21,680 nt of DNA from a virus (lineage: Duplodnaviria > Heunggongvirae > Uroviricota > Caudoviricetes): positions 108,794 through 130,473 of IMG/VR virus record IMGVR_UViG_2974628062_000001; one strand, given 5' to 3'. The translations under genes and the position numbers were made by a program. The notes under the pieces were generated by a model that saw nothing but the letters and a program-made list of their open reading frames with translations, made no database searches and was not told where the DNA came from. This document shows positions 714 to 14,697 of this stretch, piece after piece; position 1 is the stretch's first letter, and the number at the start of each line of letters is the position of its first letter.

Positions 714-727
714 GGCAGGCTGCTAGG

Positions 728-757
728 TTGACAGACCTAGCAAGCTTCGTGTAAGGT
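728..757 (+). promoter_or_regulatory. sigma70/HrdB-type promoter
   Basis: TTGACA-18-TAAGGT; -35 in hairpin loop. Confidence 0.7.
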
Positions 758-784
758 GTTCTTACACAACGACAAGGAGTGACA

Positions 785-1021
785 ATGGGTACTGGTCTTG
801 TAGCTTACGACACCGTTTATTCTTACCAGGTTGAGGCTGAGGATTATGTGCGATTCACCATTGATGGTGAAGTTCATGAGGGCACTGTCCTGAATGTGGA
901 TGACACCATTGATGGTGTTCACATTACCCTCTCTGATGACACTGAGGGAGATGCCGACATTTTCGTTCTTACTGACGATGATGAGGTTGAGCTTCTTACT
1001 CGGGAAACTGTCGAGATTTAA
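785..1021 (+). CDS. very acidic hypothetical protein (78 aa)
   Basis: AAGGAG SD puts start at ATG 785; D/E-rich. Confidence 0.8.
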   Translation: MGTGLVAYDTVYSYQVEAEDYVRFTIDGEVHEGTVLNVDDTIDGVHITLSDDTEGDADIFVLTDDDEVELLTRETVEI

Positions 1022-1040
1022 GAAATGCCAATGGGGCGGG

Positions 1041-1070
1041 TTGACAAACCCGCCCCAAGCTTGTTAGTCT
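1041..1070 (+). promoter_or_regulatory. sigma70/HrdB-type promoter
   Basis: TTGACA-18-TAGTCT; -35 in hairpin loop. Confidence 0.75.
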
Positions 1071-1116
1071 TCTTTTAACGACCTTAAACGAAGGGAGTAT
1101 TAGACAGGAGAAGACT

Positions 1117-1500
1117 ATGAAGAAGGAATTTATTTGGGGTTCGATTGTTGCGGCCCTATTTGGTGCTGTGCTATTGGTGGTCATGCTATTGGCTTCCCAT
1201 AAGGAACAGCCGACTACGTTTGAGCGATACAAGGAGTACGCTGAGCAGGTAAATGTTGTTGATTGGACTATCAGCAAGGATACTGCCGAAAGTTTTGCTG
1301 ATGCCAATTGCGATAAGCTGGCACAAGGAGAAATGCCTGCCATTGCTTTTCAGAATGGTGAGCATGTAAAGTCCAGTGGTGCTGTTATTGCAGCTTACTG
1401 CCCAGAGTCTTTTGACAATTTCTTGGCGGGTATTGCAATGAAGTACCCTGAGTATATCGAAACAGCCAAGTACCTGAACTACAGGATTAAGGTTTACTGA
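1117..1500 (+). CDS. membrane-anchored protein, DUF732-like
   Basis: N-terminal TM/signal segment; C..L..G...A..YCP pattern resembles DUF732 (recognised by eye). Confidence 0.55.
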   Translation: MKKEFIWGSIVAALFGAVLLVVMLLASHKEQPTTFERYKEYAEQVNVVDWTISKDTAESFADANCDKLAQGEMPAIAFQNGEHVKSSGAVIAAYCPESFDNFLAGIAMKYPEYIETAKYLNYRIKVY

Positions 1501-1604
1501 TGATTGTTGTAAGGGCTCTGATTCTCTTCGTCGTGGGAATTCTCGGCGGGATTCTGGGACTTTACCTTGGCTTTCTAATGGCTATCAATGGATGGTTGGG
1601 ATGA
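1500..1604 (+). CDS. small membrane protein (34 aa)
   Basis: MIVVRALILFVVGILGGILGLYLGFLMAINGWLG; TGATG overlap with upstream stop. Confidence 0.7.
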   Translation: MIVVRALILFVVGILGGILGLYLGFLMAINGWLG

Positions 1605-1744
1605 AGAAGCGGGAATATCAAGACCCAGCAGAAGAGCTAATCATTGGTTGTCTTGGTAGAATTCTTCTCATTGGAATTCTGCTGGGAGCAGTCTTTGTCG
1701 GAGCAATCTGGGGATTGGTAGAACTCTTTCAATGGGCTATCTAG
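1601..1744 (+). CDS. small membrane protein (47 aa)
   Basis: ATGA overlap; MKKREYQDPAEELIIGCLGRILLIGILLGAVFVGAIWGLVELFQWAI. Confidence 0.7.
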   Translation: MKKREYQDPAEELIIGCLGRILLIGILLGAVFVGAIWGLVELFQWAI

Positions 1745-1758
1745 ACAGGGACAGTAAC

Positions 1759-1950
1759 ATGGAAAAGCACGAAACTCTTCGGGTGTTCATCGTTGGTGCG
1801 TTCATCACCATCGTCCTGCTTGGCATCATCGGAGGCATGGTGTATGCTGGTCACCAGAACAACGTCAAGGACCAGAAGATGACCGTTGAGTGTCTGAAGA
1901 ACGGCGGAGAGACAAAGTACAGCAGCAACATGCTGGTCTGCGACAAGTAG
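1759..1950 (+). CDS. small membrane protein (63 aa)
   Basis: ATG 1759 after AGGGA; one TM helix, two C-terminal Cys. Confidence 0.75.
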   Translation: MEKHETLRVFIVGAFITIVLLGIIGGMVYAGHQNNVKDQKMTVECLKNGGETKYSSNMLVCDK

Positions 1951-1961
1951 GCCAGAGGGGG

Positions 1962-1990
1962 TTGACACCCCCAAGCTAGCAAGGTAGATT
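1962..1990 (+). promoter_or_regulatory. sigma70/HrdB-type promoter
   Basis: TTGACA-17-TAGATT. Confidence 0.8.
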
Positions 1991-2016
1991 GGTTCTCACA
2001 AGGAAGGGGAACGGAC

Positions 2017-2412
2017 ATGCAGTCCACCGAAGGTTTCAAGATTCGACTCACCGCTCATGCACATCAGCAGATGCTTGCAAAGCAGATGTCACCTGTAAAG
2101 ATTCAGGAGGTTTTTGACAACCCTGAGAAGCTTTATCCCAACAAGAAGTACGAAGGTCAATTCCGCGTAGTGGGCAATGGCATTTGCCTTGTCGGTAAGC
2201 CTGAGGGTGATACCTTCTTGGTGTTTACTCTTTACGAGGATGGCATTCTTACGCCACCCCGACCGGACCAGCTTGAGACTCCTGAGGGTCAGGAGTATGC
2301 TAAGCGTTATCAGCGTGCCATCACGACTGGTAATGTCCGGAGGGAAAACGAGTACTGGGGACGTGTTCATGCACGGAACCGAAGTGATTCACGTCACAAC
2401 TATATCCGGTAA
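2017..2412 (+). CDS. DUF4258/RelE(BECR)-like putative ribonuclease-fold protein
   Basis: N-terminal IRLTAHAHQQM...IQEVFDNP and later beta-strands ending VFTLY resemble DUF4258; the ORF itself is solid, the fold call is tentative. Confidence 0.5.
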   Translation: MQSTEGFKIRLTAHAHQQMLAKQMSPVKIQEVFDNPEKLYPNKKYEGQFRVVGNGICLVGKPEGDTFLVFTLYEDGILTPPRPDQLETPEGQEYAKRYQRAITTGNVRRENEYWGRVHARNRSDSRHNYIR

Positions 2413-2439
2413 TTAAATTCATGGTACTCTAGTGAAATC

Positions 2440-2461
2440 CGCTACCCCAAATGGGGTAGCG
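2440..2461 (+). terminator. hairpin without AAGCT tail upstream of NlpC/P60 gene
   Basis: CGCTACCCC-AAAT-GGGGTAGCG, 9 bp; no U tract. Confidence 0.45.
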
Positions 2462-2488
2462 CGTAATAAACTGAGGAGTTATTGTTTC

Positions 2489-2959
2489 ATGTATAAGAAG
2501 ACTGCGGCTATCGGAACGCTTCTTGTCTCTTCCGCTATGGTTATCGGCATTGCACCTAATGCTGAAGCTGCTACAACACAGGAAAAGGCTGCAAGCGTTG
2601 CAAAGGCTCAAATTGGGGACCCATACAAGTGGGGAGCAAAGGGGCCAAATGCATTCGATTGCTCAGGTCTTGTTTGGTATTCCTTTAATAAGGCTGGTAA
2701 GGCTTGGAGTTATAAGCCTACCAATGGAATGCGAAAGTATCAGACCAATGACATTACGGTGAGTCAGCGAAAGGTCGGAGACCTTATCTTCTTCCGTCGC
2801 AAGGGTTCATCTGATTGGAGCCATGTAGGAATCTATGTAGGTAGTGGATACATGGTTAATGCGGTAAATGGTAACACGTATAAGGGTGTTCGCAAGGGTA
2901 AGATAGTTGATGGGTACTGGAATAAGTACTACAGCGCTGACTACCGCCGCGTAAAGTAA
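2489..2959 (+). CDS. secreted NlpC/P60 peptidoglycan endopeptidase
   Basis: GAGGAG SD, ATG 2489; signal peptide ending AEA-A; GDPYKWGAKGPNAFDCSGLV (catalytic Cys) and SHVGIY (His). Confidence 0.9.
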   Translation: MYKKTAAIGTLLVSSAMVIGIAPNAEAATTQEKAASVAKAQIGDPYKWGAKGPNAFDCSGLVWYSFNKAGKAWSYKPTNGMRKYQTNDITVSQRKVGDLIFFRRKGSSDWSHVGIYVGSGYMVNAVNGNTYKGVRKGKIVDGYWNKYYSADYRRVK

Positions 2960-2993
2960 GACCTCAAAATCAGAAATACGCGGGGTGTTTCCC

Positions 2994-3022
2994 TTGACAC
3001 CCCGCAAGCTTCGCACTATAAA
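2994..3022 (+). promoter_or_regulatory. sigma70/HrdB-type promoter
   Basis: TTGACA-17-TATAAA. Confidence 0.6.
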
Positions 3023-3031
3023 AGGAGAACC

Positions 3032-3184
3032 TTGATTCGCATCGTAACAGGTATTGTGTTGGTGGTTCTTGGTGTGGTAGTCTCGTGCCTGTCTGAGCAA
3101 CAGAACATGGCAGTGATGATGGGTGTGGTTGGCGTAGGATTTTTGTTCGTGGGTATGCTTGACAAGCCCGAACCTACAGAGTAA
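3032..3184 (+). CDS. small 2-TM membrane protein (50 aa)
   Basis: AAGGAG SD, TTG start; MIRIVTGIVLVVLGVVVSC...PEPTE. Confidence 0.7.
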   Translation: MIRIVTGIVLVVLGVVVSCLSEQQNMAVMMGVVGVGFLFVGMLDKPEPTE

Positions 3185-3231
3185 GTTAGTCATCACAAGG
3201 CGGGAACACCCGCCAAGCTGAAGGGGTGAAA

Positions 3232-3594
3232 ATGAACGAGCTTCTGTACCACTTCGAAATCGGTCTCCCTGAGGGCTTCCAGAAGCCTGAGCAGCGTGTT
3301 AGAATCAACTACGGCAGGCACGCACGGAAGGAAGCATTTCAGGACCGCTACGGGCGCATCAAGCTCCCTTCGTTCGTCACCCTTGGTCGCTTTCAGGTCA
3401 TTGAGGTTGGCATGGTTGGCGACAAGGTTTCCAAGATTCTGTTTCGTGGTAGGCTCGATGAGACGCGAGACCTGTGCATCGTACTGATTCCGGGGGTTGA
3501 CAACCAGCCCTGGTTCTGCAAGACTGTCTGGGTAAACAAGAACAACGACAAGCACAAGACGCTTGACACCACCCGATACGAGACGGTAAGCTAG
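3232..3594 (+). CDS. phage hypothetical protein, possible BECR-fold nuclease
   Basis: YGRHA...DRYG.I.LP and KTVWVN..DKHKTL motifs; H-A helix start and terminal TVW strand reminiscent of RelE/DUF4258-type folds (tentative). Confidence 0.4.
   Translation: MNELLYHFEIGLPEGFQKPEQRVRINYGRHARKEAFQDRYGRIKLPSFVTLGRFQVIEVGMVGDKVSKILFRGRLDETRDLCIVLIPGVDNQPWFCKTVWVNKNNDKHKTLDTTRYETVS
3563..3592 (+). promoter_or_regulatory. sigma70/HrdB-type promoter inside gene end
   Basis: TTGACA-18-TAAGCT. Confidence 0.55.
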
Positions 3595-3618
3595 CATCAC
3601 CCAAACAAGGAGAATAAC

Positions 3619-3843
3619 ATGAACGGCTCGATTCGCTTCGGTACCTTCTTCACCTTCCTTGGTGGTAGCGCTGTTGCCAATGGTTTCTTCCGAATGGAAG
3701 AGAACATGACTCTGGGAATCATCCTCATTGTCTGTGGTGTCGCTATCGACATCATGGGTCTCAACTACGTTGAGAAGGGTGTGAAGGAGACCCTTCGGGT
3801 TCGTGACCTTGAGCGCAAGGCTGGTGTTCGCAAGAACGTCTAA
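3619..3843 (+). CDS. small 2-TM membrane protein
   Basis: AAGGAG SD; hydrophobic segments, basic tail. Confidence 0.8.
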   Translation: MNGSIRFGTFFTFLGGSAVANGFFRMEENMTLGIILIVCGVAIDIMGLNYVEKGVKETLRVRDLERKAGVRKNV

Positions 3844-3893
3844 GCAGTACCGGCCCTTCGGGGCCAAGCTTCCCATCAATCAAGGATGTGGGT

Positions 3894-4079
3894 ATGAAGT
3901 TTAACGGTCACATCGTTGCCGGGTTTGTTTCTCTGGGATTCTGTCATGGAATTGCAGAAGGGGCAATCGAATTCTTTAAGGCTGGAGATTATTTTCTGAG
4001 CATCATGTTCACTGTATTGGCGATGACAATATTCAGTCTTGGCTTTCATCTTCTCCAGTTCGGTTTCACCAAGAAGTAG
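3894..4079 (+). CDS. small 2-TM membrane protein
   Basis: AAGGA SD; hydrophobic. Confidence 0.75.
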   Translation: MKFNGHIVAGFVSLGFCHGIAEGAIEFFKAGDYFLSIMFTVLAMTIFSLGFHLLQFGFTKK

Positions 4080-4094
4080 CAGATAGGAATAGAA

Positions 4095-4667
4095 ATGACC
4101 AGGTTCTTTACTTCTGACACGCACTTCGGTCATGCTCGAATCATCGAGCTTTGCAATCGTCCTTTCTCTTCAGTTGAAGAGATGAATGAGGAAATGATTG
4201 CCCGATGGAATGCAGTTGTTAAGCCAACGGATACTGTCATTCATTTCGGAGATGTTGCACTGGGAAAGATTGCCGAGTCTCTGCCTCTCATTGAGAGGCT
4301 GAATGGAATCAAGTCTCTGATTCCTGGCAATCATGACCGAATCTTCTCGGGAGAGAAGGAGAAGCAGCGGATTCGATTCATGGAGAATTACGAGTGGGTT
4401 TTCAATGGCGGCATTATGCCTGAGACCTCTCGATTCAAGATTGACGGTAAGCTGGTCATGGGAAGTCATTTCCCATACAGCGGGGATTCTCATGGTGAGG
4501 ATAGGCACGCTGATAAGCGACCGAATGATGAGGGTCTGCCTCTGATTCATGGACATGTTCACGATAAGTGGAAGTTCAATGGTCGCATGTTCAACGTTGG
4601 TGTGGACGTGAACAACTTTACTCCGGTTTCTGAGGATGAAGTGGTTGCGTGGCTGCGTAGCCTGTAG
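4095..4667 (+). CDS. calcineurin-like metallophosphoesterase
   Basis: All five motifs present: SDTH, GD, GNHD, SH, HGHVH. Confidence 0.92.
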   Translation: MTRFFTSDTHFGHARIIELCNRPFSSVEEMNEEMIARWNAVVKPTDTVIHFGDVALGKIAESLPLIERLNGIKSLIPGNHDRIFSGEKEKQRIRFMENYEWVFNGGIMPETSRFKIDGKLVMGSHFPYSGDSHGEDRHADKRPNDEGLPLIHGHVHDKWKFNGRMFNVGVDVNNFTPVSEDEVVAWLRSL

Positions 4668-4728
4668 TAAAGTGGGGGTTGTTCGAGAGAGCAACCCCCA
4701 AGCTTCCCAAATCAACAAGGAGAAGAAA

Positions 4729-4959
4729 ATGTCTGCTCGTTCTGACAAGGCTGCTTTCGGTATGGCCCTTAACCTTGGCCTGTGCATTCTGAATGTGGTG
4801 TGTGCAATTCATTACCATGACGAGTCGGATGCTTACCTTCTGAATGCGGGTGCTGCGGTCTTCTGTGGATTCTTCTTTATTCTCAACATGTTCAGCTATT
4901 TCGCTGCCAAGTTCGATGAGGATGTTGAACGGACTTACCGCCGGATTTCGGGTAAGTAG
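4729..4959 (+). CDS. small 2-TM membrane protein (76 aa)
   Basis: AAGGAG SD; start MSARSDK. Confidence 0.8.
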   Translation: MSARSDKAAFGMALNLGLCILNVVCAIHYHDESDAYLLNAGAAVFCGFFFILNMFSYFAAKFDEDVERTYRRISGK

Positions 4960-5011
4960 TAATACCGCCCGCGAAAGTGGGCAAGCTTCCATAACTAACA
5001 AGGAGAATGTT

Positions 5012-5188
5012 ATGCGAGAGTCTACCATGTACTTCATTGCCGCTGTTGTCGCCCTCTTTGCGGTGATTGCGAATGCTGCAAGCAATGTCGGTGGATTTTG
5101 GGGTGGCCTTGTAATTGCCATGATTGTCGGCGCTGCAATGGGTCACTTCTTTGCTAAGGGTCTTATCCTTCGGGGTCGTAACCGTTAG
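5012..5188 (+). CDS. small 2-TM membrane protein (58 aa)
   Basis: AAGGAG SD; start MRESTMYF. Confidence 0.8.
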   Translation: MRESTMYFIAAVVALFAVIANAASNVGGFWGGLVIAMIVGAAMGHFFAKGLILRGRNR

Positions 5189-5236
5189 TGAAAGGCGGGG
5201 TTCGCCCCGCAAGCTTCCCAACTATAGGAGTAACAA

Positions 5237-5440
5237 ATGTTCGACTTTCTTCTGACTTCCAAGTTCAGCTTCATTCTTGCTGTGACTTGGACCTTCCTCG
5301 CCATTGTCAGCTTTACTGATGGTGAGTATTGGGTCGGTTGGCTTCAGCTCATCATCGCTATTCATGACCTGAATGAGGGAATGCAGACCCGGCTTATTGA
5401 GACTGGTTACTACGTCAAGGCTTCTAGCCTGGTCAAGTAG
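5237..5440 (+). CDS. small membrane protein (67 aa)
   Basis: AGGAG SD; hydrophobic N-terminal half. Confidence 0.8.
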   Translation: MFDFLLTSKFSFILAVTWTFLAIVSFTDGEYWVGWLQLIIAIHDLNEGMQTRLIETGYYVKASSLVK

Positions 5441-5487
5441 TAACATGGGGCTTCGGCCCCAAGCTTCCTCTGAATAAGGAGATAATT

Positions 5488-5940
5488 GTGGACCTGTTTA
5501 CCGCAGAGCGAAATGCAAAGCTTCTTATGGCTGCTCATGGATTGGTCGGGTGGCGTTTCGAATGGGATAATGCTGCAAGGCGATTCGGTCGGTGCACGTA
5601 CTCTACTCGTACCATTTCAATGTCTAGGCAATTGACTGTTCAGCGGACAGAGATGGCAGTCCGGAATACAATGCTTCATGAAATCGCACACGCTCTTGTT
5701 GGTCCTGGCCATGGTCATGATGCCGTTTGGCGGGCTAAGGCAATTTCAATCGGTTGTGATGGAAAGCGTTGTTCTGCTGACAAGGTAGAGGTTAATTACA
5801 AGTACGTAGCAAAGTGTCCTAATGGACATATCTCAAGGAAGTATCTTCGTAAGCCTCGCGCATCGGCAAGGGGGCGTTCCTGCCCCATTTGCAGCCCGGT
5901 TTACAATGCCAAGTATGCAATTAGGGTGGTGGCTATTTAA
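5488..5940 (+). CDS. SprT-like zinc metalloprotease domain protein
   Basis: RRFGRC; HEIAH (HExxH) followed by HGHDAVW; C-terminal CxxxH/CxxC. Confidence 0.88.
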   Translation: MDLFTAERNAKLLMAAHGLVGWRFEWDNAARRFGRCTYSTRTISMSRQLTVQRTEMAVRNTMLHEIAHALVGPGHGHDAVWRAKAISIGCDGKRCSADKVEVNYKYVAKCPNGHISRKYLRKPRASARGRSCPICSPVYNAKYAIRVVAI

Positions 5941-6119
5941 TGAGGGATACAGTTCCTTTCACTATCTACAAGGAACATGCAAAGACGGGTCATCAGTGGA
6001 GAGACAAGACTGATGATAACGAGAGGCGTAATATCGACACGGTAAGCAAGAGATTGTACATTTGCTCTTGTGGTTGGCTTGGTTGGTTTGCCACTGCTGA
6101 CTTGAATACTGTGAATTGA
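5940..6119 (+). CDS. hypothetical protein (59 aa), His/Cys possible Zn ligand set
   Basis: TAATG overlap; MRDTVPF...HAKTGH...ICSCGW. Confidence 0.65.
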   Translation: MRDTVPFTIYKEHAKTGHQWRDKTDDNERRNIDTVSKRLYICSCGWLGWFATADLNTVN

Positions 6120-6202
6120 TTTGGGTGGGGGATTACTCCCCCACCAAGCTTGCTACAACAGTCAGTACAAAGGTTGGCTGTGTGGCTCTCTAAGGAGGAA
6201 AC

Positions 6203-6496
6203 ATGAGGGTCTGGCTCGATGACCTCAGGGAGGCTCCAAGCGGTTGGCTCTGGCTCACCAGTAGCCGTACAGCCATCAATTGGCTTGAGTGGGCAAAGAT
6301 GCTGAACGCCCCTCCGCAAGCCTGGTCATTTGACCATGACCTAGGTGGTGACGACACCTCCCGTGCTGTGGTACTGTGGATGTGTGAGAACGAGTTCTGG
6401 CCGGATGAGTGTTATGTTCATAGCGCCAATCCAGTTGGAATCGAATGGCTTCGTGGTATGATTCAGCGATACGCTCCGGAAGGGACACTGAAGTGA
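6203..6496 (+). CDS. cyclic-phosphate-processing receiver (cREC)-like domain protein
   Basis: VWLDDLR, SFDHDLG, VHSANPVG motifs typical of this divergent REC family. Confidence 0.75.
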   Translation: MRVWLDDLREAPSGWLWLTSSRTAINWLEWAKMLNAPPQAWSFDHDLGGDDTSRAVVLWMCENEFWPDECYVHSANPVGIEWLRGMIQRYAPEGTLK

Positions 6497-6861
6497 GTCA
6501 CGGCAAGGTAGTCTGCAAGTGTGGTAAGGTAATTCAGCAGTGCCGCTGCATGGAAGGCCACAAGAACATTACCTACACTGATAGGTGTGAGCACGAGTGG
6601 TGGACTGAGCTTGAGAACGAGCTTGACAAGGAATATGACGTTGCGTCATACTGGGACAAGGAGAATCGTTATCTGGAGATTGACCTCCCTGTAGGTCGTC
6701 ACACACTTGAGGTGGCTCTCACCAACGTGTACGGTTTTGTGATTTCATTGGTGATTACCGATGAAACCGGCGGTATGATGGTGGAAAAGGACCTTCACAG
6801 TTGTGTGAAGCGTGAGCATCTTGCAGATACGATTCACAGCCTGTACACTAGCTATGAATGA
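6493..6861 (+). CDS. hypothetical protein with N-terminal Cys cluster (122 aa)
   Basis: GTGA overlap; CKC...CRC...C. Confidence 0.75.
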   Translation: MSHGKVVCKCGKVIQQCRCMEGHKNITYTDRCEHEWWTELENELDKEYDVASYWDKENRYLEIDLPVGRHTLEVALTNVYGFVISLVITDETGGMMVEKDLHSCVKREHLADTIHSLYTSYE

Positions 6862-6869
6862 GGGGTAAC

Positions 6870-7058
6870 ATGCCTGGTGCAAATTGGAATGACCTGACTC
6901 CCCAGGAAAAGGCGGATTGGTTCGACAATTCAATTCGCAAGTGGGAGAATCTGTCTGCTGAGCAAAAGCAGAAGGCAGCGGATGAAATTCGTAGGGCGCG
7001 TTCTGATTCTCGTAAGGGTCAGAAGCGCCACAAGAAGAAGCATTGGTGGAACCACTGA
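6870..7058 (+). CDS. hypothetical protein, basic C-terminus (62 aa)
   Basis: GAGGGG SD; MPGANWNDL. Confidence 0.75.
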   Translation: MPGANWNDLTPQEKADWFDNSIRKWENLSAEQKQKAADEIRRARSDSRKGQKRHKKKHWWNH

Positions 7059-7117
7059 TGTTCCGGCGGGTTTGAAATATAACCCGCCAAGCTTCCCTAA
7101 TTAAACAAGGAGTCGTA

Positions 7118-7303
7118 ATGACTAAGGGTATGACTGTCTTTCTCGCCAGTCTCGGATACTTCCTTTGCTTTGTGTGGTTCATGATTGCCAGTGCCAAGGT
7201 CGCTGCTGGACAAACTGACTGGACAGTGTACCTGAACTATGGTACATCTGTTATCTGGTCCGTTACGGGTACCATTTGGATGTGCAACACTAGGAACTTC
7301 TAG
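7118..7303 (+). CDS. small 2-TM membrane protein
   Basis: AAGGAG SD; hydrophobic. Confidence 0.8.
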   Translation: MTKGMTVFLASLGYFLCFVWFMIASAKVAAGQTDWTVYLNYGTSVIWSVTGTIWMCNTRNF

Positions 7304-7332
7304 TTGACACATCGAGTCTAGTTCGCTAGACT
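7304..7332 (+). promoter_or_regulatory. sigma70/HrdB-type promoter
   Basis: TTGACA-17-TAGACT. Confidence 0.75.
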
Positions 7333-7362
7333 CAAGCTTGTAAGACCAACCAAGGAGGAAAC

Positions 7363-7725: not shown

Positions 7726-7840
7726 GCGTGGACAGCCGTTCTGCGGTAGCAAGTGCTGCGGAGAGAAGCGGGCAAAGAAGGCTCACACGCGTAGGATGAA
7801 GCGTCGGGAGCGGGGAAACCGTGCGTGGCGTAGCTTCTGA
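7715..7840 (+). CDS. small basic Cys-containing protein (41 aa)
   Basis: MLGKRGQPFCGSKCCGEKRAKKAHTRRMKRRERGNRAWRSF; stop lies just before a cassette hairpin. Confidence 0.65.
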   Translation: MLGKRGQPFCGSKCCGEKRAKKAHTRRMKRRERGNRAWRSF

Positions 7841-7858
7841 GAAAGTCGGTCGGGGGTG

Positions 7859-7887
7859 TTGACAAGGGTCGCACCCCCGACTAAGCT
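7859..7887 (+). promoter_or_regulatory. sigma70/HrdB-type promoter
   Basis: TTGACA-17-TAAGCT. Confidence 0.75.
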
Positions 7888-7917
7888 AGCACCATCAACA
7901 ACAACGAAGGGCATGAA

Positions 7918-8244: not shown

Positions 8245-8269
8245 CAGGGAATCCGGGCGGGTGTAACAT
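8241..8269 (+). promoter_or_regulatory. sigma70/HrdB-type promoter
   Basis: TTGACA-17-TAACAT. Confidence 0.75.
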
Positions 8270-8350
8270 GGGGTTAATCCAGAAGGGGAAGGGAGTGGAA
8301 AGTCCCTCCCAACCCTTCTGGTCCCCAAGCTTCTCAACTTAAGGATGGAT

Positions 8351-8536
8351 ATGGACATCGCAAGCATTCGAAAGCTTGGATATGCACTGCTTCTTTCCTC
8401 CGCTGCTTTGATGTATGCTGGCAATGAAGCGCTGGAAATGAATGCAGTTGTCCTGGCAAACTTCGAATTCTTCGTGAGCATGATTTGCTTCACGAATGGT
8501 GGACTGGCTATCTACATGACCAATGGACTTAAGTAG
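8351..8536 (+). CDS. small 2-TM membrane protein
   Basis: AAGGA SD; hydrophobic. Confidence 0.75.
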   Translation: MDIASIRKLGYALLLSSAALMYAGNEALEMNAVVLANFEFFVSMICFTNGGLAIYMTNGLK

Positions 8537-8541
8537 GGATT

Positions 8542-8790
8542 ATGGAGTACATTAAGTACGAAGCTGGGTTCTTCTTCACCCCGGTTGAATCTACTGGACT
8601 GCTTGACCAGTACGACTGCTACGTGGTACACTCAAGCCTCAAGTACCAAAGAGGTCTGGGATATCCGGGAAGGCTGGAAAGGTTCAGCAGGCTCGGTGAG
8701 GTTCACGTAATCGTACACGCAAGAAACCGGCGCGTTGCTGAAAAGAAGGTTCGTCGCCTTCTCCGTAAGCATTACAGAAAGAACCGATAG
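8542..8790 (+). CDS. hypothetical protein, basic C-terminus (82 aa)
   Basis: ORF track; packed after previous gene. Confidence 0.75.
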   Translation: MEYIKYEAGFFFTPVESTGLLDQYDCYVVHSSLKYQRGLGYPGRLERFSRLGEVHVIVHARNRRVAEKKVRRLLRKHYRKNR

Positions 8791-8819
8791 ACTGCCAATG
8801 ACCCCGAAAGGGCGAGGAC

Positions 8820-8894
8820 AGCCCCAATAGCATAAAATGGCGAATGTACCTAGTTTATAATAGGTGATTGCAGGTTCGAATCCTGCTGGGGTTG
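8820..8894 (+). tRNA. tRNA-like gene with non-canonical anticodon arm (possibly degenerate Ile-TAT)
   Basis: Acceptor AGCCCCA/TGGGGTT, D arm GCAT/ATGT with GG in loop, perfect T arm GCAGG-TTCGAAT-CCTGC; anticodon arm ACCTA-GTTTATAA-TAGGT has an 8-nt loop; no encoded CCA. Confidence 0.65.
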
Positions 8895-9058
8895 CGGAGA
8901 CAATTCATATATTAGAATATGTCTCTATAAAAGAATAAATATAATGAACAGCAGGTCGAATTGCCTCTCGGTAATGAGTCCGTGGCTACAATACCTTGCG
9001 AGGGATAAAGATGGCAATGGTGAGTGCGGCTAACCTGCTAATATAATCTGGAGTTCTT

Positions 9059-9340
9059 ATGCGGCTTAAGGAAGTTGACCTTACTGGTTGGAAGTTCGAG
9101 ACGGAAAAGCACATGGGTTTCCGTGTCATGGGCCAGAATCAGTATTGGTGCTACGTTACTAAGCCTGATGGTGAGCGACTGAAGTTTGTTAGCTTCCAGT
9201 TTGGCCTGATGGTCAATGACCATCTGAGCACGTATGCTTGGACCGACAAGGGCGCTGAACGAAAGTTCATCAAGAGGGTGCGCAAGATGGTTCGAGATGA
9301 TATCGTGGAAGCAGAAAGCAAGACGACTAAGACTCTCTGA
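9059..9340 (+). CDS. hypothetical protein (93 aa)
   Basis: GGAG SD. Confidence 0.8.
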   Translation: MRLKEVDLTGWKFETEKHMGFRVMGQNQYWCYVTKPDGERLKFVSFQFGLMVNDHLSTYAWTDKGAERKFIKRVRKMVRDDIVEAESKTTKTL

Positions 9341-9354
9341 AGGAGACAGCCAAC

Positions 9355-9540
9355 ATGATGATGATTCCCGCTCCGCGTGTTGAGGTTGAGTTCCCGTGCA
9401 CTGAGAAGGGCTGTGATGGTTTCTACGTGCCTTACAGCGATGGTCTGATGGTCTGCTACGACGGACACGTTTCCAGCCTCTCTGTGGACGATGTAGAGCT
9501 TCCGGTTGGCGCACTTGTGCCAGTGCTGGAAGAGTGCTAA
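9355..9540 (+). CDS. small Zn-ribbon-like protein
   Basis: AAGGAG SD; C-x4-C...C-x3-H. Confidence 0.75.
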   Translation: MMMIPAPRVEVEFPCTEKGCDGFYVPYSDGLMVCYDGHVSSLSVDDVELPVGALVPVLEEC

Positions 9541-9598
9541 GGTTGTTCCAACGGCGGGGGAAACCCCGCCAAGCTTCCCAACAAAACAGGAGAATGAA

Positions 9599-10024
9599 AT
9601 GAACAAGAAGAACGTTGCTCTCGCTGTCGGTGCTGTTGTTCTGCTTACTGGTGGTCTGACTGCCTGTAACGATGACGATGCAAAGGTTGCTTCTGAGAAT
9701 GTGTCCAAGGCTGCTGACAACTTTGAGGTCAACCGCCGGATTACATTCATCAATGGTATCACTGACAAGTATCTTGTTGTTGTTACCGGCGCTTGTTCGA
9801 TTGAGGCTGAGTCTAAGCAGCTTGAGGTCATTTGCAAGACTGGTAAGGATGAGTACAAGAAGTTGATGCTTGGCCTTTCTGACAATGTCACGTACACTGT
9901 TGAGCAGGGTGAGCCTGTAAAGGCTAGTGCTTACCACTACCGTATGACCTTCAAGCCTCAGTCGATTCTTCCGGATGTTGATTTCCGGGGCTCTACTGAT
10001 GATGGTCCGCGTAACCAGGATTAA
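9599..10024 (+). CDS. lipoprotein (141 aa)
   Basis: AGGAG SD; signal peptide with lipobox LTAC. Confidence 0.85.
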   Translation: MNKKNVALAVGAVVLLTGGLTACNDDDAKVASENVSKAADNFEVNRRITFINGITDKYLVVVTGACSIEAESKQLEVICKTGKDEYKKLMLGLSDNVTYTVEQGEPVKASAYHYRMTFKPQSILPDVDFRGSTDDGPRNQD

Positions 10025-10072
10025 TATCCTGGGGCCGGGAAACCGGCCAAGCTTGCAATATCCATAACTAAC

Positions 10073-10297
10073 ATGGGGTTGACCGTGAAGAAGATTGTTG
10101 CTAAGCTCCGTCGTAACAAGGACCTGAACACCTTCGTTGTCTACATGACGAATGGCAAGAAGTTCAAGGTCAAGGCTAAGAATGCAACGCTTTGGTACAA
10201 GACAGGAACTGGAATTTGCTGTGACATTAAGTGGGAGGGGCGAGTTACCGACTTCTCTCCTGCCCCTGCCTCTGTTGCCGCTCTGGTTAAGAAGTAA
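10073..10297 (+). CDS. basic hypothetical protein
   Basis: ORF between two cassette elements; start could be GTG 10085. Confidence 0.75.
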   Translation: MGLTVKKIVAKLRRNKDLNTFVVYMTNGKKFKVKAKNATLWYKTGTGICCDIKWEGRVTDFSPAPASVAALVKK

Positions 10298-10354
10298 GCA
10301 ATACCGGGCGAGAAATCGCCCAAGCTTCCCAGCAATCTACCAAGGAGAATTAAA

Positions 10355-10636
10355 ATGCTGGTTGTTCTTGTCAATGACGCTTCTGACCTTCCCTGGTCTT
10401 TCAAGGGATGGAAGGTGAATTACAAGCGGATTGGTCAGACGACTTACGGCTACCAGTTTGTTGACCCGTCTGGTACTGTTCACTCGAATGCGTGCGACGC
10501 TTCTGGATTCTACAAGCAGTACAATGTGAAGTCTGTTGAGCATCTTCTCACTGAGGCTGTGAATTCCTCTAACGCTCGATATGCAATGGAGAAGTACCTT
10601 CTCAAGCACGGTGAGGTTGAGACTGTAGAACTGTAG
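10355..10636 (+). CDS. hypothetical protein (93 aa)
   Basis: AAGGAG SD. Confidence 0.8.
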   Translation: MLVVLVNDASDLPWSFKGWKVNYKRIGQTTYGYQFVDPSGTVHSNACDASGFYKQYNVKSVEHLLTEAVNSSNARYAMEKYLLKHGEVETVEL

Positions 10637-10684
10637 TAAACGGGCGGGTTTTCCCGCCCAAGCTTCCCAACTAAGGAGAATGAA

Positions 10685-10867
10685 ATGCGTACTTACGACA
10701 TCGAAATCTTTTTCATGGATGGCACGTCTCGTAAGTTCAATGGTTGCAAGCGTCCTGTAGATGCTGAAGAGAGCAGCTATGGGGTTATGGAGAATGACGG
10801 AAAGACGGTTCATATCTACCCGATTCACAGGGTTTGCGAGATTGTTCAGGTCCGTCACGATTCGTAA
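10685..10867 (+). CDS. hypothetical protein (60 aa)
   Basis: AAGGAG SD. Confidence 0.8.
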   Translation: MRTYDIEIFFMDGTSRKFNGCKRPVDAEESSYGVMENDGKTVHIYPIHRVCEIVQVRHDS

Positions 10868-10917
10868 GAATCGGCCCGGTTTACCGGGCAAGCTTCCCTA
10901 CTAAGATTGGATACGCA

Positions 10918-11121
10918 ATGTCTCGGAAGACTGAAGCTTTCCGGCGGGATATGATGATGGGTACCATTACTCCTCATATTCCTGCTCAGATTCCCGATTG
11001 GGAGCCATACGTAATCGCAGAGAAGAAGGTTCCTTGCCCACGATGCGGCAAGTCGGTTAAGCTCAATGGAAAGGCTGTTGAGCAGCATTATGCAGCAACT
11101 TCAAATTACATCTGCCACTAG
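10918..11121 (+). CDS. Zn-finger-like protein (67 aa)
   Basis: CPRCGKSV...QH...IC. Confidence 0.7.
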   Translation: MSRKTEAFRRDMMMGTITPHIPAQIPDWEPYVIAEKKVPCPRCGKSVKLNGKAVEQHYAATSNYICH

Positions 11122-11596
11122 AATCGGCAACAGAGAAGACGCACAAACTGTAGCTGAGTGGGATTGGAACGACAATGAGTTCCCCGAAGGATGGTATTAT
11201 CTAGGGGAAGGTGCTCAAAGACTGGTTCTTCTCAGCCCCGATGGTGTAGTCTACAAAAAGGAAAAGCCGGGCGAACATCAGGTCAATGAAGATGAGTTCG
11301 TAAATTACTTCAAGGCCAGTAGGATTCCGGTGAAAAACTGGCGGGTTCCAAAGACTGGCTTGTATGTGATAGGCTTTGAACCAGTAATTGCAATGGAGTA
11401 CGTTGAAGGAAAGTACGACATTGAATGCAGGCGATATGGAGTAGGATTCAATGAGGGTTGTACCTGCTTGCAAACGCCTTGTACTGCATGGGAATGGGAA
11501 AAGCCAACGACTCTATGGGATATCATTGACCTATCAGAGACAAACATTCTGATAGAGGAAGATGGTACGCGAGTTCTGATTGACATTGTGGCCTAA
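11090..11596 (+). CDS. minimal protein-kinase-like protein
   Basis: LGEGAQR (Gly loop), VVYK (Lys), NEDE (helix C), IAMEYVEG (hinge), DLSETNILI (catalytic loop), VLID; start 11066 or 11090. Confidence 0.7.
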   Translation: MQQLQITSATRIGNREDAQTVAEWDWNDNEFPEGWYYLGEGAQRLVLLSPDGVVYKKEKPGEHQVNEDEFVNYFKASRIPVKNWRVPKTGLYVIGFEPVIAMEYVEGKYDIECRRYGVGFNEGCTCLQTPCTAWEWEKPTTLWDIIDLSETNILIEEDGTRVLIDIVA

Positions 11597-11646
11597 CGGT
11601 CAGCGGACGAAAGTCCGCAAGCTTCGTACAATAGAAGGAGAAACAC

Positions 11647-11793
11647 ATGGCTAAGTCGGTTCGTCGCATTCAGTCTCAGAAGATTCAGACTCCCCGGAGC
11701 AAGAAGACGCGAGACTATCGCAACGGAAATGACTTCTCCAACTTCAAGGGTCCTCGCTACACTCGTAAGGCTAAGTACTCTCAGGAGTGGTAA
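11647..11793 (+). CDS. small very basic protein (48 aa)
   Basis: AAGGAG SD; MAKSVRRIQSQK...RKAKYSQEW. Confidence 0.75.
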   Translation: MAKSVRRIQSQKIQTPRSKKTRDYRNGNDFSNFKGPRYTRKAKYSQEW

Positions 11794-11966
11794 TGGAATA
11801 TGTTGCTAGGGTATGTAGCTTCCTGTTTGGTGTGGGAGTGTTTCTACTAATGGCATGGAATTCTCACAACCACCTTTATGGCATTGAGCCTAATATCGGT
11901 GCATGGGGATTCATTGGGATTCCAGTTTCTTCACTGGCTATGGCAGCAGCCATCCATAAGAAGTGA
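11793..11966 (+). CDS. small 2-TM membrane protein (57 aa)
   Basis: TAATG overlap; MEYVARVCSFLFGVGVFLLMAW... Confidence 0.7.
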   Translation: MEYVARVCSFLFGVGVFLLMAWNSHNHLYGIEPNIGAWGFIGIPVSSLAMAAAIHKK

Positions 11967-12032
11967 ATTCCGGCGGGTTACTAAACATCGTAACCCGCAA
12001 GCTTCATCATTAAATACAATTAAGGAATAACA

Positions 12033-12266
12033 ATGGAGCGGTTTCTTCAGGCACTCTTCACGGGCATCATCGGCTTCTTCATTGAGGGATGGATGCTGAT
12101 GCTTTTCCTTGGTGGTGTGCATCACGAGGTTCTTTCCTCAGTCAATCCGATTGGTTACTGGACTGCCTGTCTCCTTTCGGTTCCGCTTGACATCATGATT
12201 GTCTCGTACTTCTCTCTCACGTCGAATCGTGTTGATGAGATTCACAAGGCAGTGGTGATTAAGTAA
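12033..12266 (+). CDS. small 2-TM membrane protein
   Basis: AAGGA SD; hydrophobic. Confidence 0.8.
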   Translation: MERFLQALFTGIIGFFIEGWMLMLFLGGVHHEVLSSVNPIGYWTACLLSVPLDIMIVSYFSLTSNRVDEIHKAVVIK

Positions 12267-12329
12267 AACTCTGGGCAATTACGAGAGCATCGTAATTGCC
12301 CAAGCTTGTCTATAAAGGAGAATGATACA

Positions 12330-12476
12330 ATGAAGCAGGGAAGCGACAAGAAGACCGTTGCGGGCATCGTCGCCTTTGGCGGTTGCTGGCTCGTGGGAGC
12401 CCTTCTGAGCCTCGCAACGACTGTCCTGGTCATCTGGGGACTCTGGGAGGGTATCCAGTGGCTACAGCGCCACTGA
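12330..12476 (+). CDS. small membrane protein (48 aa)
   Basis: AAGGAG SD; MKQGSDKKTVAGIVAFGG...WLQRH. Confidence 0.75.
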   Translation: MKQGSDKKTVAGIVAFGGCWLVGALLSLATTVLVIWGLWEGIQWLQRH

Positions 12477-12538
12477 GAGCTTTTCCGGCGGGTGTGCGTG
12501 TGACCCGCCAAGCTGTGATACAGTAAGGAGGCAAGACA

Positions 12539-12601
12539 ATGAGGCAAGTTTGTCCGTTCTGTCATCGTATGAGATGCATCTGTCGTCATATATTCTCTTA
12601 G
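12539..12601 (+). CDS. Cys-rich micropeptide (20 aa)
   Basis: AAGGAGG SD; MRQVCPFCHRMRCICRHIFS. Confidence 0.6.
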   Translation: MRQVCPFCHRMRCICRHIFS

Positions 12602-12609
12602 GATGAATC

Positions 12610-12777
12610 ATGAAGAAGAGTTCAAAGCTACGCCTGTTCCTCTTGACCAGTCTTGGCGGATTGGTTATACTGGCGATGATGTTCGGGCTGATGATGGGTA
12701 TCCTGATGCTTGACAACAGCCCGAACAAGTGTGCATCCAAGGTAGCAGCAAAGGTCTACGACCCTGCTTGTTTCTGA
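12610..12777 (+). CDS. small membrane/secreted protein (55 aa)
   Basis: AGGA SD; MKKSSKLRLFLL... one TM, C-terminal Cys pair. Confidence 0.65.
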   Translation: MKKSSKLRLFLLTSLGGLVILAMMFGLMMGILMLDNSPNKCASKVAAKVYDPACF

Positions 12778-12779
12778 GG

Positions 12780-12808
12780 TTGACAGCCACACGCAAGTGT
12801 GGCAAGCT
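12780..12808 (+). promoter_or_regulatory. possible sigma70-type promoter
   Basis: TTGACA-17-CAAGCT. Confidence 0.5.
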
Positions 12809-12839
12809 TGCAGCAACGGAACGAACCTGAGAGGTTGAA

Positions 12840-13235
12840 ATGAAGCTCTTCGGTAAGAAGCTTGACAAGGTGCCAGACCAGCGTAAGATTGAGGAACTGG
12901 AGATTGAGCTTGGTCTTACTCCTATCGTAACTGAGGAGAATTTCGAGCGGGAGTTTGACAGGGCTATCATCAATGACTACCGTGAGAAGTACGGTAAGAC
13001 ATGGATTGAAGCTCAGGCATACGAGAGGACTTACTACAATCGTCACAATCATTTTCGTGATGACCCTGAAGAGCGACAGTTGAAGAGGGAATGGGAAGAG
13101 AAGGGTTCAGAGGCTGAGCTTGCTTTTGACGAGACCCGCTCTTTGCTGACTCAGGAATCAAGTCGGGAGGAGTTCGAAAAGGAATTCAACCCGAGTCATG
13201 AGAACAACTACCGCTCTTGGCACTCGTATTACTAA
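12840..13235 (+). CDS. charged hypothetical protein (131 aa)
   Basis: GAGG SD; E/R-rich. Confidence 0.8.
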   Translation: MKLFGKKLDKVPDQRKIEELEIELGLTPIVTEENFEREFDRAIINDYREKYGKTWIEAQAYERTYYNRHNHFRDDPEERQLKREWEEKGSEAELAFDETRSLLTQESSREEFEKEFNPSHENNYRSWHSYY

Positions 13236-13292
13236 AATTGAATAGGGGCTATGGCCCCAAGCTGACGGGTCCTCCGGAAACATGGAGCTGAA

Positions 13293-13655
13293 GTGAAGAT
13301 TCGGATTCGTAACTCTGCCATCGTAAACCCGCGCAAGCCTGATTACGATGCAATCAAGAAGATGGAGAAGGAACTTCTTGGTGAGTTTCCTTCATTCGAA
13401 ATCAATTACAATGAGATGTTGATTAAGGATTTCGAGAATCGTAAGAGGGATGGCAATTGGCCTGCACGTCAGACCATGCTTGAGCTTGGGTACTTGAGCG
13501 AAGAGCTTTACAATACCCCGCAACGATTCGATATCCTTCGTAAGTATTCCATGTGGAGAAAGGCTTACTACGAAAGCAGGATGAACGACCCTGAGAATCG
13601 TAAGCGATATGACGCTCTTCGTTCTCGCATGATGCGTGGAAGGCAGTGGCGTTAA
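13293..13655 (+). CDS. hypothetical protein (120 aa)
   Basis: GGAG SD, GTG start; N-terminus (P.Y..IK.ME.EL) loosely like that of 12840. Confidence 0.75.
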   Translation: MKIRIRNSAIVNPRKPDYDAIKKMEKELLGEFPSFEINYNEMLIKDFENRKRDGNWPARQTMLELGYLSEELYNTPQRFDILRKYSMWRKAYYESRMNDPENRKRYDALRSRMMRGRQWR

Positions 13656-13720
13656 ATTCGCGGGGGTTGAAAAACCCCCAAGCTGTATTACCCCATCGTA
13701 AATAACATAAGGAATGTATT

Positions 13721-14020
13721 ATGAAGCGCATTGCTGCTCTCACTGCCTCTGTCGTTGCTGGCTCGGTTCTTCTGACTGGCTGCGGTTCTCTGGGAAGCGG
13801 AGAGAAGGTCAATCCGCCTGCCAAGGGAATGGTGTACAAGCGTGAGCAGTCGCTTGACAGTACTGGTCATGTGGTTTATGAGCTGAGTCTCACGACTGAC
13901 CGTAAGGCCATTCGTCGTAAGGCTTCTCGTGCCACCCCTTCTAAGCAGAAGGACATCACGGTTTCTGCGAGTGTCTACAAGAGCTGTGAGCTTAAGGAAA
14001 TGTACCCTGCTTGTAAGTAA
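13721..14020 (+). CDS. lipoprotein (99 aa)
   Basis: AAGGA SD; lipobox LTGC. Confidence 0.82.
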   Translation: MKRIAALTASVVAGSVLLTGCGSLGSGEKVNPPAKGMVYKREQSLDSTGHVVYELSLTTDRKAIRRKASRATPSKQKDITVSASVYKSCELKEMYPACK

Positions 14021-14078
14021 GGGTATGGGGCGAAAGCCCCAAGCTTCAAAAACTCTGGGCTAAAAAGGAGCCATCGTA

Positions 14079-14276
14079 ATGGCAGTTCTCACGTACACTG
14101 TTGGCCGCCTTCGTCGCAAGGAATTCCGAGCGACCCTTTCTGAATTCAGCATGAAGGGAAAGGTTGACAATTACGAAGAGGTAAAGGGATTTCTCGATTC
14201 CCGATTCGTAATTGATGCCAGCATTGACAATCATGTGGAAATCATCAAGAGTCTTGATGTGAACTTGGAAGAGTAA
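14079..14276 (+). CDS. hypothetical protein (65 aa), last gene of left array
   Basis: AAGGAG SD. Confidence 0.8.
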   Translation: MAVLTYTVGRLRRKEFRATLSEFSMKGKVDNYEEVKGFLDSRFVIDASIDNHVEIIKSLDVNLEE

Positions 14277-14371
14277 AAACTCTGGGCTGATTTCTAGCCA
14301 TCGTAAAGGCAAAAATTCTGGGTGTTTTTTGGACCATCGTAAATGGGTCCCCGGCGGTTAGGCTGCCTAAA

Positions 14372-14670
14372 TGTACCACGGTTTGTACCGTGGTACAAAG
14401 CTTGCTACAAACCAGGGTCGTTGAATGTTCAACCATTCAACCCTCAAAGGTTGAACGTTGAACTATCCAGCGGGTTGAATGTTGAAAGTTGAACAACCTG
14501 TGCCGACTGGGATTGTACCAACCACTGTAGCAATACAAACGTTGATACAATCCGGGATTGTTGAAAGCTCAACAATCAAGGTCTAAGAGGTTGAACGTTA
14601 AACTACTTCTGTAGCATCGATTGTAGCAATACAAAGCGTGGTACAAAGCCGGTCGGCCAGAGTTGTTGAA
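14372..14670. repeat. non-coding cluster of GTTGAA/TTCAAC and TACAA-type repeats
   Basis: GTTGAA at 14420, 14450, 14457, 14474, 14481, 14488, 14560, 14590, 14665; TTCAAC at 14428, 14436; CGTGGTACAAAGC x2 (14389, 14637); TGTAGCAATACAAA x2 (14526, 14622). Confidence 0.85.
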
Positions 14671-14676
14671 TCCCGC

Positions 14677-14697
14677 ACATCCACACCCTGTGGATAA
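14677..14697. promoter_or_regulatory. DnaA-box pair (perfect TGTGGATAA plus inverted 2-mismatch box, 3-bp gap)
   Basis: ACATCCACA-CCC-TGTGGATAA; TGTGGATAA is the reverse complement of TTATCCACA. Confidence 0.55.

Follow-up and report, generated by a model that had tools for sequence, protein, structure and literature searches.

Phage messages are punctuated between genes in several described ways. The early messenger RNA (mRNA) of phage T7 carries RNase III sites and that of Bacillus phage SP82 carries Bs-RNase III sites, long irregular stems of ~20+ base pairs (bp) that are cut inside the helix by a double-strand-specific enzyme. RegB of phage T4 is an endoribonuclease that cuts GGAG in early mRNAs, destroying ribosome sites and shutting early genes off, and the REP stabilisers of Escherichia coli are intergenic hairpins with sequence-conserved stems that shield the upstream mRNA from 3' exonucleases. 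The promoter-early stem-loop (PeSL) cassettes of T4-type phages, reportedly the subject of work by Arbiol et al. in 2010, are said to be defined by a sigma-70 early promoter, and the title of a 1995 paper by Ingham, Hunter and Smith reportedly announces U-less Rho-independent terminators in the early region of Streptomyces phage phiC31. Here we analyse an intergenic element of another Streptomyces phage, a GC-rich hairpin with the pentamer AAGCT at its 3' foot. It recurs in a stretch of 21,680 nucleotides (nt), hereafter the window, which forms the right end (positions 108,794-130,473) of a complete phage record (IMG/VR record IMGVR_UViG_2974628062_000001) that is 130,473 bp long and has a terminal repeat of 788 bp. 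The lineage is Stanwilliamsviridae, Loccivirinae, cluster BE2-like, and the nearest named relatives are the Streptomyces phages Beuffert, Annadreamy and Limpid (~87% identity across two-thirds of the first 12 kb). The hairpin with AAGCU(U) is an RNA-level gene-end signal that is conserved across the whole phage subfamily, and no description of it was found in the literature searched.

Like the T7 and SP82 sites, the element is a repeated intergenic hairpin of early genes that may divide a long transcript into hairpin-ended mRNAs, but its stems are free in sequence, its conserved part is a single-stranded 5- to 6-mer outside the helix, and it occurs in ~60 copies. The likeness to T7 RNase III processing drawn in the first-pass annotation of the window thus holds as logic and fails as an enzyme, stems of 5-13 bp being too short for the ~20+ bp helix within which a T7-type RNase III cuts. 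With REP the element shares the intergenic position and the proposed protection of the upstream mRNA, whereas here free stems are joined to a fixed flanking 5-mer. As with RegB, a short strict RNA signal recurs between early genes and a lineage-specific reader is possible, but AAGCU lies upstream of intact ribosome sites; we know of no RegB homologue in this phage. As in PeSL, stem-loops stand at the borders of variable, small accessory genes in a hyperplastic region, some of them fused to promoters, and these borders are exchange breakpoints; a sigma-70-type early promoter is present in only ~8 of 29 copies instead of in every unit, and the defining part is AAGCU at the stem foot. The phiC31 terminators, as far as the title describes them, are likewise intergenic hairpins of a Streptomyces phage without poly-U, whereas in the genome studied here U-tract terminators form a class of their own beside the element; to our knowledge no AAGCU motif accompanies the phiC31 terminators. 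Finally, mycobacterial RNase E prefers RR|CNU in single-stranded RNA, ~90% of its cleavage sites having C at +1, and these sites are concentrated between genes that are transcribed together (PMC10641625; PMC6448022). AAG|CUU matches this preference at every specified position, and the site is intergenic, beside structure and predicted to be open; RNase E has a loose preference, whereas five letters are invariant here, and the preference, being mycobacterial, may not be that of Streptomyces RNase E.

The first-pass annotation had placed 29 hairpin-AAGCT copies between 721 and 14403. All AAGCT occurrences were printed with their flanks and examined with a foot-anchored hairpin finder and RNA folding, by which all 29 copies were recovered (Table 1), together with the division of the hexamer into AAGCTT (23), AAGCTG (4) and AAGCTA (2), the absence of a U-tract from every copy, the three G-U-containing stems that had been named (4674, 4967 and 7849) and 13 RNA tetraloops, four of them UUCG (AAGCT at 3866, 5211, 5461 and 7334) and nine GNRA. 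The limits of the array were too narrow. A pattern scan of the full genome gave between 53 and 63 copies at different stringencies, every one of them on the + strand and spread over ~47-123 kb. By comparison with Beuffert's annotation, this region comprises the replication genes and the tRNA region as well as the long right arm with its small genes. In the late structural module (10-42 kb) the element is present only once, behind the major capsid gene. With both strands counted, the window contains AAGCT 120 times where shuffled sequence gave 42 ± 7.6, a roughly three-fold excess. In a scan of the genome that was independent of the motif, it followed 47 of 312 perfect GC-rich + strand hairpins (33 directly, 14 as AGCTT with the first A paired); every other pentamer followed at most three, and the 315 - strand hairpins had no comparable pentamer preference.

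In an alignment at the stem foot of 190 distinct copies, taken from this genome and from eight related loci, AAGCU was fixed, U(+6) was found in 86% and C(-1) in 97%; downstream there is a weak preference for C at +7/+8, then A-rich sequence, and further positions are unconserved. The C before AAGCT had been correctly observed, but in 185 of the 190 it is the 3' partner in the G-C pair that closes the stem, and the hairpin therefore abuts the motif, with a spacing of zero in ~97% of copies. Stems are 5-13 bp long (5-12 bp in 28 of the 29 window copies), with a median folding free energy (dG) of -12 kcal/mol. The gap between stop codon and stem has a median of 6 nt and is mostly 4-8 nt, while the distance from AAGCU to the next Shine-Dalgarno sequence (SD) varies from 0 to 48 nt; the element is therefore a part of the upstream gene's end. 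Among hairpins close to stop codons, all related sequences included, 216 are followed by AAGCT and ~6 by a one-letter variant (GAGCT, TAGCT, AAGCC, AAGCG). The predicted unpaired probability of AAGCUU is 0.48 against 0.32 for control hexamers.

That selection acts on the RNA, as had been proposed, is borne out by the loops, the mismatches and the covariation of the stems. Among 156 distinct copies the loop is GAAA in 40, UUCG in 13 and GCAA in 6, and UUCG and GAAA replace each other in orthologous loops; UUCG confers extra stability in RNA and none in DNA. Internal mismatches flanked by two pairs on each side are G.U or U.G in 24 cases, A.C in two and G.A in one, and after obvious orthologues are collapsed G.U still exceeds A.C by ~17 to 2 (p ~4e-4). 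Since pair-breaking transitions yield G.U and A.C equally, only a fold of the + strand explains this bias. Orthologous stems differ by compensatory double changes while AAGCU(U) stays unchanged; at the site after the phosphoesterase gene, five different stems were found across eight phages. A scan of relatives found AAGCT conserved in phages of the Loccivirinae type and in two distant ones, Ankus and Byblos. No such element was found in Rhodococcus phage Weasels2 or in 70-odd metagenomic phages with the same phosphoesterase, and an Rfam search of the window returned no known RNA family for it, a tRNA being the sole match.

RNA processing, one of three functions offered by the first-pass annotation, is the best fit to the tetraloops, the G.U bias, the covariation, the anchoring to stop codons and the zero spacing. 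We give about an even chance to the reading in which the element is an endonucleolytic processing site and 3' stabiliser, and take host RNase E and a factor of the phage to be about equally likely as its reader; what we infer here is that a cut is made, where it falls and which enzyme makes it. Long early and middle transcripts would start at a few host-type promoters, some of them built into hairpins, and the polymerase would read through the U-less hairpins. In the transcript a hairpin would form 4-8 nt past the stop, and the single-stranded AAGCU(U) at its 3' foot would be the signal for an endonuclease, either host RNase E or a nuclease specific to the phage lineage, cutting inside AAGCUU and most plausibly at AAG|CUU. 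The upstream product would keep the hairpin with a ~3-nt tail, too short for the grip of a 3' exonuclease, and such a tail on a stable hairpin would explain the zero spacing; the downstream product would start a few nt before a strong ribosome-binding site. The elements lie between co-oriented genes, whose co-transcription we deduce only from the scarcity of promoters. A cut just 3' of a helix is made in Streptomyces coelicolor between the Cs of CCA-encoding tRNAs (PMC4681348).

Several observations weigh against this processing model. The near-invariance of AAGCU is stricter than any RNase E consensus, and a 5'-monophosphate on the product would ordinarily increase its exposure to RNase E and RNase J instead of reducing it. 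No copy at all was found in Mildred21, a phage of the sister subfamily (Boydwoodruffvirinae, cluster BE1) with the same hosts; the host machinery thus does not require it, and its reader may be encoded by the phage. The strict pattern SSSSSGAAASSSSSAAGCT gave 9 matches in 81 Streptomyces genomes against 4 for controls, none of them a hairpin, and no hairpin-AAGCU was found at the 16S, 23S and 5S borders of a Streptomyces ribosomal RNA (rrn) operon. Together with the strictness of the motif and the result for Mildred21, these searches speak against a reader that is purely of the host. Three of the canonical terminators of the phage (genome positions 10244, 47828 and 99528) carry G-AAGCTT 13-17 nt past the stem and not touching it, so that the logic of the minimal tail fails there. 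Those behind 10244 and 99528 are kept in Beuffert, and ~0.6 would be expected by chance among 12 terminators; this is one observation that favours a reading at the DNA level. From the same searches, a copied host genomic signal was rejected for the strict pattern in the 81 genomes, and mimicry of host rRNA processing sites was rejected on the rrn borders.

A protein of the phage lineage is as plausible a reader as RNase E. A speculative candidate is a 131-amino-acid protein encoded in the window (Table 1), whose predicted structure has a predicted local distance difference test (pLDDT) score >90 for residues 1-70 and resembles RelE/YoeB/YafQ mRNA interferases over the first 80 residues, a borderline similarity (Foldseek E-value 1e-3, target template modelling score ~0.6). 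Its match to DUF4258 is weak and sub-threshold, and no sequence match to solved structures was found. The protein is conserved in 36 phage records of the lineage, in some of which it bears a BrnT-like toxin label, and an antitoxin partner is not evident. Its gene was present in every element-bearing phage checked and not in Mildred21. This co-occurrence was rejected as support and weighs little, because 11 of 12 window proteins tested share the absence from Mildred21. We hold it distinctly unlikely that an endoribonuclease confined to the lineage, with this RelE/BrnT-fold protein as the candidate, would cut AAG|CUU next to the hairpin and leave, as RelE-fold RNases do, 2',3'-cyclic-phosphate and 5'-OH ends. 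If it did, such ends would be poor substrates for host PNPase and for the 5'-monophosphate-sensing RNase E and RNase J, and the phage would punctuate and armour its own messages by a private code, a constructive counterpart of T4 RegB. The phage encodes a polynucleotide kinase and two RNA ligases.

A non-canonical terminator or attenuator, in which the hairpin and AAGCUU halt or pause RNA polymerase (RNAP) in the absence of a U-tract, perhaps aided by host NusG or by a factor of the phage, would give graded, falling expression along the array; we judge it unlikely. The geometry is that of a terminator, a GC-rich tetraloop hairpin behind stop codons at zero spacing to a fixed sequence, and several copies are fused to host-type promoters in the manner of terminator-promoter junctions. 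But the U-tract of 7-9 nt that stands at the stem foot of a canonical intrinsic terminator is replaced by AAGCUU and then C/A-rich sequence, and the RNA:DNA hybrid of AAGCUU is not weak. The same genome uses 12 textbook hairpin and U-tract terminators on the + strand, which sets the AAGCU hairpins apart as a second class; a scan of the window gave no convincing + strand site of the U-tract kind. The host rrn operon ends in a canonical terminator, a UUCG hairpin with a U-tract, and hairpin-AAGCU, as the strict pattern, was not found in the 81 host genomes. Actinobacterial RNAP, in this case mycobacterial, required a U-tract in vitro, and U-less 3' hairpins have been proposed in mycobacteria as RNA stabilisers or markers of processed ends (PMC3993855). 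In ~70% of copies, moreover, the next ribosome site lies just 10-17 nt beyond AAGCUU, which leaves no room for a promoter, and downstream genes therefore need transcription by read-through; efficient stops would silence most of the array. A terminating ribosome would also melt a hairpin that starts 5-6 nt past the stop codon. Promoters bear on a further alternative of the first-pass annotation, a terminator/promoter junction in which (C/T)AAGCT is a -10-like element for phage-modified host RNAP and the hairpin merely closes the previous unit. This we consider disfavoured and improbable, even though AAGCTT resembles TAnnnT (A at position 2, T at position 6), TTGACA stands 17-18 nt before (C/T)AAGCT at 3588 (a hairpin-less site, not among the 29 copies), 7883 and 12804, AAGCTT lies behind the three terminators described above, and the phage encodes WhiB-, Lsr2- and MerR-like regulators. 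The SD follows AAGCT by at most 6 nt in 29 of 201 copies (14%), and by at most 3 nt in 13, with the full consensus retained, as in AAGCTTAGGAGG at genome positions 84198 and 89990; a start ~7 nt downstream would remove the SD in those 29, and AAGCT is thus not generally a -10. Conservation ends at +6, zero spacing to a stem is not expected of independent modules, and it is the distance to the stop codon that is fixed and the distance to the next gene that varies. Where host-type promoters do overlap window copies (~8 of 29, with TTGACA in the loop or 3' arm and a spaced TAnnnT), AAGCTT falls in the spacer of TTGACA-N17/18-TAnnnT in variable register, the real -10 lying mostly 2-6 nt past it. 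A promoter scan of the whole window gave 20 sites against 15.9 in shuffles and so was not above shuffles. A Sigma70_r2 search of the genome had no match, Beuffert's annotation contains no sigma factor or RNAP, and a PF00940 (T7-type RNAP) search of the genome found nothing, with controls equally silent. N4-type hairpin promoters, 3-nt-loop DNA hairpins used by a virion RNAP, differ from the element, in which loops are mostly RNA-type tetraloops; an RNAP gene was not found.

The proposal that the elements are recombination anchors stands as an evolutionary consequence, seen in element-bounded gains and losses and duplicated junctions, and not as the primary function, because recombination leaves the RNA-level constraints unexplained. 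Homology ends were compared with Beuffert, Annadreamy and contigs of related phages from four wastewater runs labelled 'RNA-Seq', probably DNA. Against the two named phages, 16 of ~36 internal homology ends lie within 25 nt of AAGCT, several at -2 to -4 or +8 to +11, in intervals (±25 nt) that make up 9% of the sequence; as the element fills nearly every gap, this enrichment is inseparable from breakpoints being intergenic. Positions 4696-4722 and 7314-7357 each align twice in Beuffert, flanking an extra gene, and these duplicated junctions are the footprint left when two elements recombine. In a metagenomic relative 3872-4091 is missing from right after AAGCTT, one 63-codon gene giving way to 28 nt, and other contigs diverge just past AAGCTT at 12006 and 14047. 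The gaps share ~20-27 nt (CAAGCUU, linker, AAGGAG), so that the elements serve as microhomology for the gain and loss of whole genes. A dedicated DNA-level element, a cruciform or + strand single-stranded hairpin with the AAGCTT palindrome as a nickase, HNH or recombinase site for cassette shuffling, is in our estimate extremely unlikely. It would draw on the palindrome, on the breakpoints and duplicated junctions at the element and on the many HNH genes of these phages, and an excess of G.T over A.C is also expected for + strand single-stranded DNA. Set against it are the stability of UUCG, which is specific to RNA, the lack of extension of the palindrome (G at +7 in only 33%), and the location, always on the coding strand, always 4-8 nt past a stop and with none in the late operon; any shared 20-27-nt intergenic sequence would yield equal seams. 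A last reading is a stabiliser and protein-binding site that is not cleaved: the hairpin would only block 3' exonucleases after distal termination, and an RNA-binding protein specific to the lineage, such as a translational regulator or a chaperone acting on the next ribosome site, would bind AAGCUU. Selection on the RNA, a strictly invariant short single-stranded motif beside a helix and the limitation to one phage lineage suit such a protein. Exonuclease trimming to the hairpin, however, would remove the motif from the stabilised product, ~60 sites before unrelated genes would all be co-regulated, and a candidate RNA-binding protein was not identified; we would be surprised if this account proved correct.

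Across an entire phage subfamily, to which many Streptomyces phages from teaching and research programmes belong, a single invariant signal present ~60 times in each genome organises the expression of most early and middle genes. The regulatory punctuation doubles as a driver of cassette exchange, through microhomology, in the hypervariable arm of large phages. The element is an easily mutated handle on how mRNA is processed and stabilised in Streptomyces, whose RNase specificities are almost unknown, and it could be used as an insulator or stabiliser part in synthetic Streptomyces operons. Should the phage encode the reader, that protein would be a new RNase with sequence specificity or a new RNA-binding protein.

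Table 1. Hairpin-AAGCT copies and the candidate reader gene in the window (window coordinates)
Feature	AAGCT at	Coordinates	Strand	Evidence or remark
Hairpin 8 bp, loop with TTGACA, AAGCTT	742	722..747	+	dG -11.0; overlaps host-type promoter TTGACA-18-TAAGGT
Hairpin 10 bp, TTGACA in loop/arm, AAGCTT	1057	1033..1062	+	dG -21.3; Annadreamy stem covaries
Hairpin 6 bp, TTGACA, AAGCTA	1973	1957..1978	+	Promoter-like TTGACA-17-TAGATT
Hairpin 10 bp with G-U, AAGCTT	3006	2980..3011	+	TTGACA-17-TATAAA; retained in 6 relatives
Hairpin 6 bp, AAGCTG	3215	3199..3220	+	SD begins 1 nt past AAGCT
Hairpin 5 bp, UUCG, AAGCTT	3866	3852..3871	+	Loop GAAA in Beuffert/Annadreamy; end point of homology to relatives
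Hairpin 11 bp with U.G, GAGA loop, AAGCTT	4700	4674..4705	+	Compensatory changes, 8 relatives
Hairpin 6 bp with G.U, GAAA, AAGCTT	4983	4967..4988	+	Hairpin finder, folding
Hairpin 6 bp, UUCG, AAGCTT	5211	5195..5216	+	Hairpin finder
Hairpin 5 bp, UUCG, AAGCTT	5461	5447..5466	+	G-C to A-U swap in relatives
Hairpin 9 bp, AAGCTT	6146	6124..6151	+	Beuffert/Annadreamy homology resumes 2 nt 5' of AAGCT
Hairpin 8 bp, 8-nt loop, AAGCTT	7089	7065..7094	+	Hairpin finder, folding
Hairpin 8 bp, UUCG, AAGCTT	7334	7314..7339	+	Duplicated junction in Beuffert; TTGACA-17-TAGACT overlapping or immediately upstream
Hairpin 11+ bp with G.U, TTGACA inside, U, AAGCTA	7883	7849..7888	+	TTGACA-17-TAAGCT
Long composite hairpin, foot touching AAGCTT	8327	8270..8332	+	-35.7 kcal/mol, RNA folding
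Hairpin 7 bp, GAAA, AAGCTT	9571	9553..9576	+	Four different covarying stems among relatives
Hairpin 6 bp, GAAA, AAGCTT	10049	10033..10054	+	Hairpin finder, folding
Hairpin 6 bp, GAAA, AAGCTT	10322	10306..10327	+	Hairpin finder, folding
Hairpin 7 bp, AAGCTT	10660	10642..10665	+	Hairpin finder, folding
Hairpin 6 bp, AAGCTT	10890	10874..10895	+	Homology resumes 2 nt 5' of AAGCT
Hairpin 6 bp, GAAA, AAGCTT	11619	11603..11624	+	Hairpin finder, folding
Hairpin 9 bp, AAGCTT	11999	11973..12004	+	Annadreamy orthologue has rare variant GAGCTT
Hairpin 12 bp, AAGCTT	12302	12273..12307	+	Hairpin finder, folding
Hairpin 7 bp, 9-nt loop, AAGCTG	12510	12487..12515	+	Hairpin finder, folding
Hairpin 7 bp, GCAA, AAGCTT	12804	12786..12809	+	TTGACA 17 nt upstream of CAAGCT
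Hairpin 5 bp, AAGCTG	13259	13245..13264	+	Hairpin finder, folding
Hairpin 7 bp, GAAA, AAGCTG	13680	13662..13685	+	Hairpin finder, folding
Hairpin 5 bp, GAAA, AAGCTT	14041	14027..14046	+	Beuffert stem covaries
Final copy, hairpin 11 bp, AAGCTT	14398	14373..14403	+	Followed by ~600 nt of non-coding iteron-like repeats
131-amino-acid RelE/YoeB/YafQ-like-fold protein, speculative candidate reader		2017..2412	+	No link to element seen

The stretch 3' of the last element (14394-15000) is non-coding and rich in iteron-like repeats, namely GTTGAA(C/T)GTT units, TGTAGCAATACAAA, which occurs twice, and CTGTGGATAACTTC, also twice, with a DnaA-box-like TGTGGATAA; the stretch may act as a replication origin or as a regulatory hub. 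Immediately to the right of the array, a separate part of the first-pass annotation had marked an rrn-leader-like region at 15239-15433. The tRNA matched in the Rfam search (38.2 bits) is a tRNA-like gene without annotation at 8820-8895 on the + strand, in which ARAGORN reads an enlarged anticodon loop with the four-base anticodon 'ttat'; the homologous spot is labelled 'tRNA-OTHER' in relatives.

Elsewhere in the genome, the U-tracts of the canonical terminators at 11427 and 18047, in the late module, overlap promoter-like TTGTCG-N17-TATA(A/C)T sites and may form a separate late terminator-promoter module. Mildred21 has another repeated motif, TGTCC-hairpin-CGAAGG, which is confined to its 11-kb terminal repeats. 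A 142,323-bp contig of Streptomyces sp. NPDC057253 encodes a ribonucleotide reductase 58% identical to that of the phage; from its size, the contig may be a co-assembled large phage or a prophage-like element.

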